Below, piece by piece: positions 627 to 38,068 of a DNA stretch of 64,000 bases. This DNA comes from Patescibacteria group bacterium (GTDB lineage: Bacteria; Patescibacteriota; Microgenomatia; Levybacterales; UBA12049), in the NCBI GenBank assembly GCA_038064195.1, contig JBBTTO010000004.1, positions 2,357 to 66,356 on the forward strand. The letters are read 5' to 3'. The notes below the pieces were generated by a model. That model was not told where the DNA came from and ran no database searches. It worked only from the letters and a program-made list of their open reading frames with translations. Both the position numbers and the translations under genes were made by a program. The stretch's first letter is position 1. Every line of letters starts with the position of its first letter.

Positions 627-1214
627 CTAGCGCAAGTTGAGCTTGATAGTTTCCTTCTTTCCTTCTAACTCACCGACGAGTAACGTGAGATTTTTATCAC
701 TTTCATTGATAGGGAAGCCAAGGCGTGTTTGTTTGGTTGAGTCTGATTGAACTTCAACCGGATCATTGTGAATATCAGCCGCTAGTTTATCACTACCGTT
801 ATTGACTGTTAAGCGGATGTAATCCCGAGCATTAATAGAAACTGTGCTTTTATAGTCATTTTTTATCTTAACGTTGACGATTAGGAAAGTCCTGCCCGCG
901 ACGGCAATTGCTCTCTTGCCTTTAACGATAATTTCATCTCTTTTCTCAACACTGTAAATTTCATACTTGAACTTACTTACTTCTTTCCCGGTTGCGTCTT
1001 TTAGAGGAAACGAGAATGATTTATCCAGGGTCTGTGACGCGCTCGGAGCTGGAAGAGTTACCTTGCCGGACGAGGTGGTAACTGTCCCTGACTGTTGTGA
1101 TTTTCTCAGAGCAAAAAAGGCAATAATGACAAGAATAATGACAATAGCCGCGAGGGGGATTGTCCATTTACTGAAGTTGACTCTTTTCTGAAAGATGCGA
1201 TTTGCTCCGTCCAT
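627..1214 (-). CDS. membrane-anchored hypothetical protein (DUF4352-like)
   Basis: N-terminal TM helix followed by a Ser/Thr linker and a beta-rich domain. Confidence 0.5.
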   Translation of the reverse strand: MDGANRIFQKRVNFSKWTIPLAAIVIILVIIAFFALRKSQQSGTVTTSSGKVTLPAPSASQTLDKSFSFPLKDATGKEVSKFKYEIYSVEKRDEIIVKGKRAIAVAGRTFLIVNVKIKNDYKSTVSINARDYIRLTVNNGSDKLAADIHNDPVEVQSDSTKQTRLGFPINESDKNLTLLVGELEGKKETIKLNLR

Positions 1215-24223: not shown

Positions 24224-24706
24224 TTGTCAATGCGAAATACCCTCTTCCTAACGTATTATATTATTATGCATTTTACAATTACGACAAAGCTATTCCATAT
24301 TTCAGATAAAGACTGTCAGTATATAGAAAAACTAGTAAAAAAACTTTTGCAGCTCACACCTTGGAAGGAACCAGACTACCCGCTTCTTGACATACTCCTC
24401 CGAAAGCACAGGAAGAAAAGCCTTGATCATATTGAAAAAAGGCTTATTTTGGAAGGTGCTATACAACCCAAACACGGACACGAAACAATTGATAATCCTG
24501 TATATTATGACGGCACTTTAGATCTTATTCTTCCAAAGAAACGTATTGTGGCAAATATGCTGGGTAAAACAGTACATGAGGCTCTCAAAGATGGGTTTGA
24601 CGAGTTGTTCCTGGAACTTGATAAGTATAAGGGACTACATTTTGCTAATGACAGCGAGTATTACAACCATAGGACAATTCGACAAAATAGGAAAGAAATC
24701 TTATGA
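24224..24706 (+). CDS. hypothetical protein, translationally coupled to the eRF1-like gene
   Basis: 160-aa ORF; its stop overlaps the next ATG (ATGA). Confidence 0.45.
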   Translation: MSMRNTLFLTYYIIMHFTITTKLFHISDKDCQYIEKLVKKLLQLTPWKEPDYPLLDILLRKHRKKSLDHIEKRLILEGAIQPKHGHETIDNPVYYDGTLDLILPKKRIVANMLGKTVHEALKDGFDELFLELDKYKGLHFANDSEYYNHRTIRQNRKEIL

Positions 24707-25164
24707 AAACGATGCAAAAACATAACAAATATTTAGTACTTCTAGTAGATAGAAAACGTGCTCGAATGTTTACCATGAGTAATGGCGTTGTTGAGGCAGA
24801 TGAAGAGCTGATCATTAATGACGTTCCGCAGAAGGTAAAGCACGGCGATGATACTTGGGATGCACAGAATAAAATCTTTCGCCATATCGAAGATCATTTA
24901 CACCGACACTTAACGCTTATTGCCCAAAATACGGCTTCTTACGCTAAGAAAAATAATATAAACAGAGTAATAATTGGAAGTCACAAACCGTTATTTTCAA
25001 AAATCAAAAAACATCTTCCCTATCCGCTTAATAAAAAAGTAGAAGGAACATTTGTTACAGAGCTTAAAGCACCGTTTGGTGAGATAGTCAAGCGGGCAAA
25101 AAATTGCATTGAAAGAGTTGAGGGTAGCGAGGAGGTAAAAAGATATGAAAAATACTTTGCTTAG
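24703..25164 (+). CDS. Host_attach / bacterial eRF1-like (baeRF) family protein
   Basis: YLVLLVDRKRARMF N-terminus and mid-region RHIEDHLHRHL...NRVIIGSH...IKKHLP pattern. Confidence 0.5.
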   Translation: MKTMQKHNKYLVLLVDRKRARMFTMSNGVVEADEELIINDVPQKVKHGDDTWDAQNKIFRHIEDHLHRHLTLIAQNTASYAKKNNINRVIIGSHKPLFSKIKKHLPYPLNKKVEGTFVTELKAPFGEIVKRAKNCIERVEGSEEVKRYEKYFA

Positions 25165-25599: not shown

Positions 25600-25673
25600 T
25601 GGCTGCGGGACATGGATTCGAACCATGGTAAACGGATCCAAAGTCCGTTGTCCTACCTTTAGACGATCCCGCA
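25600..25673 (-). tRNA. tRNA-Gln (anticodon UUG)
   Basis: cloverleaf with U1-A72, anticodon loop CUUUGGA, T-arm CATGG-TTCGAAT-CCATG, 3' GCCA. Confidence 0.85.
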
Positions 25674-25676
25674 AAG

Positions 25677-25916
25677 TTATTTGAGCCTTCGATTAAGATA
25701 AGCTCTTCCAAAACCAGTTTTCAGCTGTTTTTCTCTGTTAATTGCAGCTGATTTCTTCAGACATGCTTCGTAATAAACAAGAGCAAAAGGTATTCTTAGT
25801 CTAGTCGAGCTGACATTCCCTAAATTATGCTCATTTATCCGAGAAACCAAGTCATCAGTCCAACCAATGTATAATTCATTATCCTTTTTACTCTTCAATA
25901 CGTATGTATAAAACAT
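25677..25916 (-). CDS. GIY-YIG nuclease family protein
   Basis: MFYTYVLKS..ELYIGWTDDLVSRINEHN GIY-YIG core; start taken at the internal ATG with AAAGG RBS. Confidence 0.7.
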   Translation of the reverse strand: MFYTYVLKSKKDNELYIGWTDDLVSRINEHNLGNVSSTRLRIPFALVYYEACLKKSAAINREKQLKTGFGRAYLNRRLK

Positions 25917-25934
25917 ACCTTTAGACGACCCGCC
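25916..25934 (-). repeat. duplicated 5' fragment of tRNA-Gln
   Basis: GCGGGTCGTCTAAAGGTA matches tRNA-Gln 5' end GCGGGATCGTCTAAAGGTA at 18/19. Confidence 0.6.
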
Positions 25935-26293
25935 TGCAGCGCTATGCAAGCGAAGCGCACCATTGCGAGCAGGTCCCGCAGTGTACCCAATATTGTAGCA
26001 TACAATAGCCTCAAAATGGAGGTTTTTAGGTATTATGGAGATCAAGTGGCTCATAAATCCACCCCATAGTTTGACCTTGATATCCCTTTTTGTTATTATC
26101 TCCCCACTCAAGATAAGTATTGATGGGCAATTGCGTTCATTTTTTGCTACTTGAGTATATTTTACATATTTCGCTCGTTTACATATTCAGTTGTTTGTAA
26201 TTAGTTCTTCAAGCTGCATCCACGAGGTCTCTCCTAAGGCTTGGTGGGTGCAGCTTGCACCGGGGTAACTTCGTCGTATCCAGGAGGATAAAC

Positions 26294-26827
26294 ATGACAC
26301 GCAGATCCAAGCCCGGTGAGAGTCAGTCTCCAACCGAAACTACGAGTCAGGATGTGGTGGAAACGCCCACAAAATCCGAGGACGACAAGGTCGCTCGTCC
26401 AAGGAGTGTAACTCACTACCGATGCTCTTTCTGCAATAAAGGCCAGGAAGAGGTCCGGCGTCTCATCGCCGGCCCGAATCGGGTCTACATCTGCGACGAA
26501 TGTGTGCAGCTCTGCCGCGAGATTATCGAAGAGGAGGAACCCGCAAAAGCGGTCATTCAAGATGCCCGCCGGCGTGCGCAGCAGAACGTGGAGAGCCTCA
26601 AAACCACACAACGTCTCCTGAGCGCTGCTCAAACCCTGCTGGAACCCGCATCGATGAATGACGGATTCGTTTCCGACGAGCTGCGTAAGCAGCTTGAGAC
26701 ACAATGCGTCCAGGCCATCCAGAAGGCCGGCGCTAGCTTCGGCCTGAAGTTGGTTCCCGTCGAAGACGCAACTCCGACAGCGGACGAGGCGGGCAGCCAG
26801 AATGGCATCGACGATACCACGGAGTAA
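26294..26827 (+). CDS. stand-alone ClpX-type C4 zinc-finger (ZBD) domain protein
   Basis: [31 protein letters not shown] almost identical in pattern to the ClpX N-terminal ZBD; AGGAGG RBS; ~60% GC. Confidence 0.7.
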
Positions 26828-29229: not shown

Positions 29230-29302
29230 GCTGAGGTAGCCAAGGTGGTCAAGGCACCTGTCTGAAGAACAGGCCATGTCAGTTCGACTCTGACCCTCAG
29301 CA
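29230..29302 (+). tRNA. tRNA-Phe (anticodon GAA)
   Basis: acceptor GCTGAGG/CCTCAGC, anticodon loop CTGAAGA, T-arm GTCAG-TTCGACT-CTGAC; unusual 3-bp D-stem. Confidence 0.7.
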
Positions 29303-29329
29303 CCCGCTACCCGCTACCCGCTACCCGCT
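29302..29329. repeat. tandem heptamer (ACCCGCT) x4, same unit as at 5305
   Basis: acccgct repeated four times starting at the tRNA-Phe discriminator base. Confidence 0.85.
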
Positions 29330-31613: not shown

Positions 31614-31696
31614 GCCCAGGTGGTGAAATGGTAGACACGATAGGTTTAGGACCTATTGCTCGTAAGAGTATGGGGGTTCAAGTCCTCTCCTGGGCA
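31614..31696 (+). tRNA. tRNA-Leu (anticodon UAG)
   Basis: acceptor GCCCAGG/CCTGGGC, anticodon loop TTTAGGA, long variable arm. Confidence 0.85.
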
Positions 31697-31700
31697 CAAT

Positions 31701-31825
31701 TCATTGGTGGTGAAATGGAGCGGAGGCAGCAGGCCGAGCTCGCCTGCTTGACAGGCGCGGAATGACACGCTGGCTTTAGGAGCCAGTGCCTAAAAAGCAT
31801 GGGGGTTCGAGTCCCTTCATCCGCA
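31701..31825 (+). pseudogene. aberrant tRNA-Leu(UAG)-like element with a ~45-nt GC-rich hairpin insertion and no proper 5' acceptor strand
   Basis: 3' two-thirds (anticodon arm CTGGC-TTTAGGA-GCCAG, variable arm, T-arm, CATCCGC-A) is tRNA-Leu-like; D-loop interrupted by GCAGGC-CGAGCTC-GCCTGC hairpin; 5' TCATTGG cannot pair. Confidence 0.5.
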
Positions 31826-31897
31826 CTAGATAGGACGTTCTCTTCAAATGAATGAATAGCTTGATAGGTAGAGCCAATGTGGCATGTTGTAGAGGAT

Positions 31898-37222: not shown

Positions 37223-37270
37223 TATACCTTGACTATTTTTAAATCTAGAAGTATACAATCCGCCAAAGAC

Positions 37271-37380
37271 CCCTGCCCGCAATGCTCTCGCATAAGCGAG
37301 GCAGGTGGGGCTCTTTGAGCCGCGCTACGAATAGTAGGCCTGCCCGCATTGCTTTGCAAAGCTTATGCAGGCGGGTAAGG
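37271..37380. repeat. two related GC-rich structured elements (CCTGCCCGCAWTGCT...)
   Basis: cccctgcccgcaatgctctcgcataagcgaggcaggtgggg and ggcctgcccgcattgctttgcaaagcttatgcaggcgggtaagg; both fold into hairpins. Confidence 0.5.
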
Positions 37381-37402
37381 CGAAAAGGAAGATCTGGCGG
37401 AT

Positions 37403-38068
37403 GTGGCTGTAGCTAATGAATCTATGAAAGCCAAATTTGATGTTATTTGTTTTGATGTCGACAGTACGCTGGTAACCTGCGAGGGCGTGGACTGGCTGGC
37501 CAAGCAAAAGGGAGTAGGGGAGCAAGTTAAAAGGCTCACCGAGCTTGCTATGACCGGTAAGGTTCCAATGGAGGAAGTCTTTTGTCAAAAAATAGACATA
37601 CTTAAGCCTAGCCAAAAAGAAATGCAAGCTTTGGGAGAATATTATTGCTCCAAACTGACTAAAGGGGCCTTGGATGTAATCAAAGATCTCAGAAAAGTGG
37701 GAGTTGAAATATTCTTGGTGACGGGAGGTTTTTTACCGGCTATCTTACCACTGGCTGCGAAATTGAAAATCCCACCGGCGAGGGTTCATGCAAATGATGT
37801 TTATACGAACAAAAATGGACACTATAAAGGAATTAATCGGGAATGCTCACTCACGACATCAAATGGTAAAGCGATCTGTGCAAAAAATATCGCCCAGGGA
37901 AGAAAGATCGCTTTTGTCGGTGATAGCGTGACTGATTTGGCGACCCAACCCGTCGTGACGACTTTTATCGGCTTTGGTGGAGTAGTAACGCGGAAGAAAG
38001 TAAAGGAAGAAGCTGATTATTTTATCAAAACTGAAAGCCTTGAGCCTTTACTATGGCTTGTGGTCTAG
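37403..38068 (+). CDS. HAD-IB family phosphatase (SerB-like)
   Basis: FDVDSTL (DxDxT) and FVGDSVTD motifs; alternative start at 37424. Confidence 0.7.
   Translation: MAVANESMKAKFDVICFDVDSTLVTCEGVDWLAKQKGVGEQVKRLTELAMTGKVPMEEVFCQKIDILKPSQKEMQALGEYYCSKLTKGALDVIKDLRKVGVEIFLVTGGFLPAILPLAAKLKIPPARVHANDVYTNKNGHYKGINRECSLTTSNGKAICAKNIAQGRKIAFVGDSVTDLATQPVVTTFIGFGGVVTRKKVKEEADYFIKTESLEPLLWLVV

Follow-up and report, generated by a model that had tools for sequence, protein, structure and literature searches.

In the 64,000-nucleotide stretch analysed here (contig JBBTTO010000004.1 of assembly GCA_038064195.1, a Patescibacteria group bacterium; hereafter, the window), a tRNA-Gln(UUG) gene is preceded by a unit having two parts: a 79-aa GIY-YIG nuclease gene and a GC-rich imperfect palindrome, which measures ~36-45 nt in this type of element and has conserved termini. 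As judged from sequence comparison, it is very probable that tRNA genes of many lineages harbor such units in their 5' portion, with a displaced fragment of the tRNA on one side and an intact tRNA gene on the other. Regarding the mechanistic picture taken as a whole, namely a widespread two-part selfish element of Patescibacteria, composed of a nuclease and a hairpin, that leaves a working copy of the gene it enters, its chances are put at slightly better than even.

Organization of the tRNA-Gln locus

The nuclease open reading frame (ORF), the tRNA-Gln and its displaced copy are read on the minus strand throughout (Table 1). As stated in the initial annotation of this DNA, the GIY-YIG gene lies directly 5' of the tRNA-Gln(UUG) gene on the same strand, with ARAGORN, Rfam and Pfam in agreement; the protein has 79 aa, and the end of the ORF and the first base of the tRNA (+1) are separated by a 3-nt gap (CTT). 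Because a complete tRNA follows the ORF, the tRNA gene stays functional despite its displaced 5' end.

A copied tRNA 5' end does stand in front of the nuclease gene, as previously noticed, but its description as an 18/19 match with an indel does not hold. After re-alignment, the repeat has 19-20/20 identity and one clean 45-nt insertion, which is the palindrome, placed between tRNA-Gln positions 7 and 8 without target duplication. The first five bases of the former alignment, GCGGG, which had been attributed to the tRNA, are instead the conserved palindrome terminus (..GCAGGCGGG). At the other end, the A of the ORF's ATG extends the match to tRNA position 20, and blastn-short pairs tRNA-Gln positions 8-20 with 25928-25916. 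When the 18-mer GCGGGTCGTCTAAAGGTA at 25916-25933 is searched in the window with up to 3 mismatches, only the tRNA itself matches, 0.01 occurrences being expected. The high-GC islet described as lying next to the locus is an integral and highly conserved part of the element and not a mere neighbor; its copies elsewhere show that the palindrome is no relic but a conserved DNA element.

The whole unit is 100% identical in L151 (related loci carry L numbers), an independent assembly from the same population, and therefore it is not an assembly artefact. Further copies of the nuclease ORF were not found in the window. Upstream of the displaced copy there is an extended -10-like box, read by eye, and a simple two-hexamer scan of the minus strand gave no -35/-10 pair. 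The proposal that AAAGG of the D-loop serves as the Shine-Dalgarno sequence is not supported, as this motif ends 1 nt from the ATG and a Shine-Dalgarno core at usable spacing is present in 3/43 related elements; this comparison is weak evidence both ways, because just 5 of the 21 genes sampled in the window have such a core.

The database entry for the same nuclease (P0001; 25677-26051, minus strand) has 125 aa, and since its start lies upstream of the 79-aa ATG, that annotation runs through the tRNA fragment and the palindrome. Many homologues are annotated with 86-125 aa, although their conserved core has 78-80 aa; what is added at the N-terminus is a read-through of the tRNA fragment and palindrome, stop-free by chance.

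Table 1. Features of the element at the tRNA-Gln locus and related features elsewhere in the window.
Feature	Coordinates	Strand	Details
Intact tRNA-Gln(UUG), encoded CCA, working copy	25600-25673	-	ARAGORN; Rfam RF00005, 63.5 bits, full length
79-aa single-domain GIY-YIG (UPF0213/Slx1-like) nuclease gene	25677-25916	-	ATG 25916-25914, TAA 25679-25677
Displaced copy, piece 2: TCGTCTAAAGGT	25917-25928	-	tRNA-Gln positions 8-19, 12/12
45-nt GC-rich imperfect palindrome ("GC islet")	25929-25973		Plus strand reads CCCGCCTGCAGCGC..ATTGCGAGCAGG
Displaced copy, piece 1: TGCGGGA	25974-25980	-	tRNA-Gln positions 1-7, 7/7
Extended -10-like box TGCTACAAT	25992-26000	-	11 nt upstream of the displaced copy; read by eye
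Disrupted tRNA-Leu(UAG) remnant, native type	31706-31826	+	Positions 7-18, 46-nt GC-rich insert, positions 22-85; no ORF
Palindrome-family copy without ORF, right terminus degenerate	37272-37310	+	Fold -12.5 kcal/mol, z=-3.9
Palindrome-family copy without ORF, CCTGCCCGCATTGC…ATGCAGGCGGG	37339-37375	+	

Recurrence across Patescibacteria and geometry of the displaced copy

Relatives of the nuclease were collected by scanning one genome per species, which gave >590 coding stretches, and the best 80 loci were kept. In most of these best 80 loci, a same-strand tRNA lies 0-15 nt behind the ORF, and it can be a tRNA for Gln, Lys, Leu, Asn, Val, Ile, His, Thr, Met, Glu, Phe, Ala or Asp. A set of 47 loci, the window included, was testable for a displaced copy, each having a tRNA no more than 40 nt away and sufficient sequence upstream. 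The layout is the following: behind the native upstream region come tRNA positions 1 to x, the palindrome, tRNA positions x+1 to y, an AT-rich filler of 0-29 nt and the ORF, beginning with its ATG, and 0-12 nt later the intact tRNA; the stop codon of the ORF falls inside the tRNA in several loci. This design was seen in >40 genomes.

A split copy of the locus's own tRNA is found upstream in 43 of the 47 testable loci, covering 12 tRNA specificities, and is made each time from the local tRNA, which upholds the former reading of the duplicated segment as the footprint of a tRNA-targeted insertion. The split-copy score reaches 18 or more in 32/47 loci, compared to 5/188 pairings with a tRNA of another amino acid, and the displaced copies are 98.5% identical to their own tRNA (934/948 positions). 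In addition, 21/43 loci have a -10-like box no farther than 45 nt ahead of the displaced copy, versus 7.7% of random windows. Remnants of the tRNA 3' end behind the intact gene are not general among these loci, being present only in L006, L022 and L057, where the inserts lie in the T-loop, and absent from the window.

Both boundaries of the displaced fragment, which is 14-33 nt long, are regular. At the 5' side, the copy reaches tRNA position 1 in 36 of 43 loci; the run shared upstream of +1 has 0-2 nt in 26 of these 36, 3-6 nt in 8 and 11 nt in L017, and the 12-nt run of L015 belongs to a tandem duplication in which the whole unit is repeated. Insertion points (x) lie between 5 and 21, and the palindromes measure 32-78 nt (median 39). 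The copy end y lies 10.0±2.6 nt past the palindrome (median 9) wherever the palindrome sits, as y tracks x (r=0.84) and the arm past the palindrome is independent of x (r=-0.04). Therefore, the fragment has one boundary set by the start of the gene and another set, at a distance of about one helical turn, by the palindrome. That old displaced fragments still match their tRNA almost perfectly suggests that gene conversion is ongoing or that some constraint acts on them.

Comparing the nuclease phylogeny with the type of tRNA, no overall link was detected (p=0.54), even though nearest neighbors share the type in 18/43 cases versus 14% expected.

The nuclease

The protein matches PF01541 with E=1.4e-15 (57.7 bits versus a cut-off of 22.6), residues 1-70 covering profile positions 1-73 of 78. 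Its start codon is fixed by 34 relatives that align M-[FY]-Y-T-Y-V-L at the ATG, and in these 34 sequences Y3, Y5, Y16, G18, R26, H30, E50, R61 and E62 are invariant; a conserved Asn was not identified in this alignment. The spacing Y5-Y16-R26-H30 equals that of Y6, Y17, R27 and H31 in I-TevI. The AlphaFold2 model (predicted local distance difference test score 96.7) has a three-stranded sheet and helices in the GIY-YIG fold.

Regarding its closest solved relatives, the profile search against the PDB retrieved the UPF0213 proteins BH0048 (1zg2, E=1.9e-7) and EF2693 (1ywl, E=1.3e-4), and Foldseek placed 1zg2 first, followed by Slx1 (TM 0.64-0.73, root-mean-square deviation 2.2-4.3 Å), with the I-TevI catalytic domain as a weaker match. 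The 79-aa nuclease is the catalytic core alone and lacks the DNA-binding domain carried by I-TevI and the Seg proteins; its similarity to solved members, its small size and the absence of an added domain place it with UPF0213/YhbQ (COG2827). The family is large, having at least 3,342 clusters at 50% identity (E≤1e-10). No model of NCBIfam, or of PADLOC for known anti-phage defence proteins, matches the nuclease, and PHROGs gave marginal matches only, one of them to a GIY-YIG homing endonuclease family (E=0.0095).

The palindrome

The termini CCYGCCYGC…GCRGGCRGG are conserved in 37 aligned copies, those of the window and of 36 family members; in this alignment, the window row is 25930-25974, one base off the true position. 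Two or three palindrome positions are mismatched in a fixed, asymmetric manner. One 36-mer, CCCGCCTGCAACGCTATGCGTAGCATTGCGGGCAGG, is identical in 4 genomes and present as its exact reverse complement in 3 others, and the ORFs beside these identical copies are only ~60% identical at the nucleotide level. The palindrome is found in either orientation relative to the ORF, and its flanks are contiguous tRNA without target duplication, with 1-2 nt of ambiguity at GG sites. A pattern search found 78 palindromes in 355 kb around the ORFs, whereas neither the 564 kb of unrelated control loci nor shuffled sequences gave a single one. There are three copies in the 64-kb window and up to four in single 5-kb loci.

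Canonical palindromes fold well as single-stranded DNA (z -3.2 and -4.0). The window palindrome at the tRNA-Gln locus is somewhat degenerate, with one arm reading GCGAGCAGG and an expanded loop, and its fold of -11.3 kcal/mol is marginal (z -0.7 and -1.9). A stable RNA hairpin was also considered for the window and discarded, as the whole 5' region folds no better than shuffled sequences (z=-0.18). The possibility of a known RNA family or group I intron was likewise dismissed, since Rfam returned tRNAs only from the window, the locus (E≤1) and 7 related loci; the best Rfam match of the palindrome itself was a CRISPR repeat model with E=0.62, far below the cut-off.

Palindrome and nuclease vary together. 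Loci with the CCCGCCCGC-terminus class of palindrome have a nuclease with YF or FF at residues 64-65 in 9/13 cases, compared to 1/25 for the other classes, this nuclease subclade mostly reading REKYFK…GRRF (Fisher p=3.8e-5, uncorrected for shared ancestry).

The two ORF-less copies of the window (Table 1) lie in a short GC-rich stretch, 37255-37405 (plus strand), right after a promoter-like site TTGACT…TATACAAT. When both palindromes are removed, the remaining 67 nt fold as a closed hairpin of -25.4 kcal/mol and hold AGGUAAGGCGAAAAGGAAG, which resembles domain IV of the signal recognition particle (SRP, 4.5S) RNA (AGGUCAGGUCCGGAAGGAAG). This stretch may be a SRP-like RNA gene with two inserts and no intact copy nearby; with the inserts in place, Rfam gave no match for 37255-37405. 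In L015 (3623-3652), a 30-nt palindrome of the same family, CCCGCCCGAACGATCGTTCGGTCGGGCGGG, stands in frame in a 402-codon TsaD/Kae1-like ORF and adds 10 codons, resembling the Rickettsia palindromic elements.

A second, unrelated hairpin family is present in L023 (2745-2810) and L036 (2840-2905), consisting of two mini-hairpins (TCGCCTCTTCGGCGA and CCTGCCGATGAGGCAGG) in a displaced tRNA-Gln copy at 21|22, before a more divergent GIY-YIG ORF. Because unrelated hairpins occupy the same place, it is the design, and not a particular palindrome, that recurs.

Variants, other targets and differing states

L033, L040 and L071 have the ORF enclosed by the two palindrome arms, an arrangement that recalls a small inverted-repeat transposon. 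The target is not always a tRNA: in L029, L033 and L041, it is the GGAGFIGS-coding start of NAD-dependent epimerase genes, where the first ~35 nt of the gene are followed by the palindrome, 7-9 nt more of the gene, filler or ORF and then the restart of the complete gene. Tandem units are found in L015 and L048.

In another variant (L046, L047 and L049), the arms surround a complete tRNA that shares the anticodon of the resident tRNA but is clearly divergent and has compensatory stem changes, and this cargo interrupts the resident tRNA at its D-loop or anticodon loop. Three different tRNA-Val versions are nested at one locus in L049. L046 and L047 have identical tRNA-Leu(UAA) genes and can be compared directly: the former reads tRNA positions 1-10, palindrome, positions 11-18, ORF and tRNA, and the latter reads positions 1-7, a nested palindrome of opposite orientation, positions 8-12, a 54-nt filler, whose end resembles the 3' end of the ORF, and tRNA. 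Thus, the ORF is present in one and absent from the other, both being already disrupted. At the Leu(CAG) locus, the two genomes differ as well, the form with the ORF being found in one and the form with a tRNA as cargo in the other. Since these orthologous loci differ in state, the Leu loci have been struck repeatedly.

The window has a related case without the nuclease ORF. The tRNA-Leu(UAG) remnant of Table 1 lacks positions 1-6 and has its 46-nt insert in the D-loop (31719-31764), ARAGORN makes no call there, and the junction-to-insert arm measures 12-13 nt. The remnant is similar to the Leu(CAG) and Leu(GAG) genes of the window, and 8 nt ahead of it lies an intact, divergent tRNA-Leu(UAG) with a GCCCAGG-type acceptor (31614-31697, plus strand). 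From these sequences, it looks like the tRNA-Leu(UAG) of this genome was replaced by a foreign copy.

Proposed mechanism

The ORF would have no promoter of its own; transcription would start at the tRNA promoter, and the ORF would form the 5' leader of the pre-tRNA. In the window, the TGCTACAAT box would be the native tRNA promoter, driving the displaced copy, hairpin, ORF and tRNA as one transcript, from which RNase P would free the tRNA. The palindrome, extruded as a hairpin or cruciform, would be the structure recognized by the Slx1-like nuclease, which would cut ~10 bp from it, about one helical turn; such a cut would explain the constant arm. The break would be then repaired with tRNA homology on both sides, installing or copying the ORF and rebuilding the full gene, as in a free-standing homing gene. 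Recombination from repeat to repeat past the palindrome would be lethal to the tRNA gene, which would retain the palindrome, and viable loss would be limited to a crossover in the first x bases, thus stabilizing the element.

In its strongest form, this model takes the ~36-nt palindrome as the DNA-recognition module of a bare nuclease, which would make a new class of prokaryotic mobile element, guided by hairpin structure and by neither a protein nor an RNA, that spreads by breaking and rebuilding essential genes; this is a tentative idea, considered rather doubtful. Its candidate targets would be tRNAs and possibly SRP-like RNA and Rossmann-fold enzymes. A more speculative and very unlikely addition is a rebuilding of the gene with its transcript as the source, which would account for a copy starting at or within a few bases of +1.

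Several points weigh against the selfish two-part element. The ORF is mostly outside the palindrome, and hence excision of the hairpin cannot move it. The immunity of occupied sites is unexplained, because the rebuilt tRNA keeps the presumed target, and the model does not account for a copy that starts at or near +1, or for a switch from one tRNA type to another. Nuclease activity, cut site and co-transcription are steps inferred from sequence, and the co-variation of palindrome and nuclease may reflect shared descent and not recognition. Moreover, no empty site, excised form or circle was found at any locus. L156 and L164 have the element at the same tRNA-Gln 7|8 site, with nucleases 67-76% identical, and for this reason the window copy was probably inherited and is not a recent arrival; on this evidence it is probably old and vertically transmitted. 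A purely selfish homing gene does not usually keep its ORF intact for so long, and this persistence could indicate a benefit to the host. Recent transposition was also considered and rejected for two nuclease proteins, each found in dozens of contigs: their upstream neighbors are constant, and variation among these contigs occurs only downstream of the tRNA.

Two routes were followed in looking for an empty site. A metagenome scan with the adjacent RtcB gave 70 loci, ≤55% identical over most of the RtcB length apart from one short partial match of 63%, and none of them has the neighboring genes, the tRNA-Gln or the nuclease. The route through homologues of the DUF7670 protein retrieved one contig identical to the window (L151) and more distant relatives without a tRNA-Gln at that place. 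Consequently, the comparison with empty-site relatives that had been advised for this locus turned up none. It had been also held that a shared arrangement with no empty site, together with a tRNA-like 18-mer occurring at random, would speak against an insertion; L151, L156 and L164 do share the arrangement with no empty site. The insertion reading nevertheless stands, because the wider comparison reveals independent insertions at many tRNAs and differing states in related genomes.

In L157, L158 and L161 (2749-4305, minus strand), a 518-aa serine recombinase (Resolvase/Recombinase/Zn_ribbon) is called directly behind the nuclease ORF, in a stretch that takes in the tRNA-Gln and the DNA following this tRNA; only some strains receive this call, as can be seen by comparison with L156, L159 and L160. 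The first ~300 nt of the recombinase stretch are nearly identical in L156, L157 and L160, the genes farther downstream differ and the nuclease side is invariant. L156, a Gottesmanbacteria-like contig, also has an ARAGORN tRNA with a CUA anticodon (773-847, minus strand; labelled tRNA-Pyl), which would read UAG.

Alternative explanations

The palindrome and the nuclease could be two independent selfish entities, a homing-type ORF residing in tRNA leaders and an unrelated palindrome, similar to REP sequences or to miniature inverted-repeat transposable elements (MITEs), moved by another enzyme and lasting only at places where it does no damage, the dead 5' copy being one of them. This has real points in its favor, as palindromes without ORF exist in the window (37272-37375) and in L007, L022, L034 and L050, one is in frame within the TsaD-like gene, nested palindromes exist and 9/86 ORFs have no detectable palindrome in the scanned flanks. 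It is nevertheless considered unlikely: a palindrome in 43 of 47 dead copies of only 14-33 nt is far too frequent for random landing, and independence fits poorly with the constant ~10-nt copy end, the co-variation of palindrome class and nuclease subclade, the lack of any palindrome in the 564 kb of controls and the loci where the ORF lies between the arms. A fixed operon beneficial to the host is less probable still. There, the nuclease would have a role at tRNA genes, for example, in processing or repair at highly transcribed, structure-prone tDNA or in guarding tRNA genes from integrating elements, and the hairpin would be a control element of the 5' untranslated region limiting expression. 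The strong conservation of the ORF across hundreds of species (~70% identity, invariant catalytic residues), its stable tRNA-Gln position in relatives, its stable context within populations and the serine-recombinase element integrated beside such a tRNA in some strains are all consistent with this explanation, and hairpins before endonuclease genes are known to control translation (PMC2677866). However, a regulatory RNA hairpin should not function in both orientations or occur away from the ORF, and the displaced fragments, the tandem units (L015 and L048), the divergent replacement tRNAs and the epimerase-gene architecture are left unexplained, besides the orthologous loci that differ in state and the lack of a match to defence families.

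The initial annotation had also offered an integrative-element attachment site, in which case the repeats would be the attL/attR pair of a classical tRNA-targeting element moved by an integrase. Direct tRNA repeats do flank an insert and the tRNA is restored, as in tRNA-targeting islands, but the segment bounded by the repeats has only the 240-bp ORF and a few bases. No recombinase was found there or among the neighbors scanned for domains (a DUF7670 protein, a baeRF-family protein and a ClpX-zinc-finger protein), related loci are the same, the repeat length is variable and the repeat stands at the 5' end of the gene; this origin is therefore very improbable. A fortuitous similarity or a faulty assembly can claim a single point, namely that the repeat in the window is short, and its probability is negligible, considering the 0.01 matches expected, a split match of 19-20 nt that abuts the palindrome exactly, the identical L151 and the recurrence in >40 genomes.

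Comparison with known systems

The arrangement of GIY-YIG gene, palindrome and tRNA has no description in Rfam, Pfam, NCBIfam, PADLOC or the full-text literature that was searched, subscription-only papers lying outside this scope; the nearest literature items are T4 SegB and the "fractured genes" paper. The segB gene of phage T4 is a free-standing GIY-YIG homing gene in a tRNA gene cluster (PMC2330249). Like segB, the present ORF is an intronless GIY-YIG gene that sits in a leader or between genes, within a group of tRNA genes or beside one, and its presumed spread is by a nuclease break repaired from the occupied allele with co-conversion of the flanking tRNA, which makes segB-type homing the system working most like the element studied here. 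The differences are that SegB-type enzymes have DNA-binding domains and >200 aa, compared to a bare 79-aa catalytic domain, and that segB resides in a phage and the present units in cellular Patescibacteria genomes, where cleavage and homing are presumed. We know of no conserved palindrome partner, split duplicated target or rebuilt gene copy in the segB system.

The palindrome itself recalls the REP/REPIN-RAYT systems and the Rickettsia palindromic elements, which are short, GC-rich imperfect palindromes with several copies per genome in either orientation, REP being tied to a dedicated enzyme and the Rickettsia elements inserting in frame. Unlike REP-RAYT, the linked enzyme is a GIY-YIG protein and not a HUH/Y1 (RAYT) transposase, and the termini are different; unlike REP-type elements, the insertion occurs in essential RNA genes, with a working copy restored and sometimes with an ORF or tRNA as cargo between the arms. 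Regarding transposons with terminal inverted repeats and MITEs, the inverted repeats and the several copies per genome are present, but a target-site duplication of fixed length is not. In fungal mitochondria, the yeast GC clusters and the Neurospora PstI palindromes flanking tRNA genes are mobile GC-rich palindromes in an AT-rich compact genome. They are often beside tRNA genes and endonuclease ORFs, as here, yet their host is an organelle and the sequences are unrelated; to our knowledge, a fixed unit of nuclease, palindrome and rebuilt gene has not been described in them.

Islands in tRNA genes and dusA-specific elements are integrative, carry a replacement gene end and have direct repeats of the target flanking the insert. 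Like them, the present element would insert harmlessly through a restored gene end flanked by direct repeats, but it has no tyrosine or serine recombinase, an insert of only ~0.3 kb, a repeat interrupted by a palindrome and variable boundaries. The closest relatives in sequence and fold are Slx1 and UPF0213/YhbQ, which share the GIY-YIG core and its Tyr, Arg, His and Glu residues. Slx1 cuts branched and stem-loop DNA (flaps and junctions) by structure and not by sequence; however, it needs Slx4 and has a RING/zinc domain, whereas the present nuclease is a bare core, its structure-specificity being proposed by analogy. We are aware of no genomic partner or mobility described for UPF0213 proteins. 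An analogy can be also drawn with synthetic "cleave and rescue" drives, since in L046, L047 and L049 an essential tRNA is destroyed and a replacement supplied, the window tRNA-Leu(UAG) being similar; this system is natural, unlike those drives, and its link between cutting and rescue is only proposed.

The element can be viewed as a homing endonuclease gene combined with a palindromic miniature element, and it would form a new class if the hairpin-guided mechanism holds. If so, many tRNA genes of Patescibacteria would be second-hand copies rebuilt behind a 0.3-kb parasite, and a nuclease lacking a DNA-binding domain would gain its specificity from DNA structure, which bears on the evolution of mobile elements and shows how small a targeting module could be. 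A parasite residing in an essential gene would either duplicate the 5' end or bring in a replacement tRNA, the latter implying the horizontal replacement of tRNA genes. For the small GIY-YIG proteins similar to UPF0213/YhbQ, a large family of no known function, the palindrome offers a testable candidate for a specific DNA partner. As for annotation, many entries of this family are over-extended at the N-terminus, and tRNA finders miss the disrupted copies.

Other features of the window

Divergent to the tRNA-Gln unit lies a gene at 26255-26827 (plus strand) with 54-60% GC, compared to ~38% GC for the genome, which is possibly foreign DNA. Its product of ~190 aa lacks an ATPase domain but has a C4 zinc finger of the ClpX type (PF06689, E=9e-20), and the gene is kept in L151; a tie between it and the nuclease element was not seen in other loci. 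The baeRF-family-10 release-factor-like gene at 24703-25164 adjoins RtcB and an archease-like gene, the archease being identified via the identical relative L151 only. A microsatellite, (ACCCGCT)x4, is located at 29292-29329 (plus strand), right behind tRNA-Phe(GAA) and overlapping its end.

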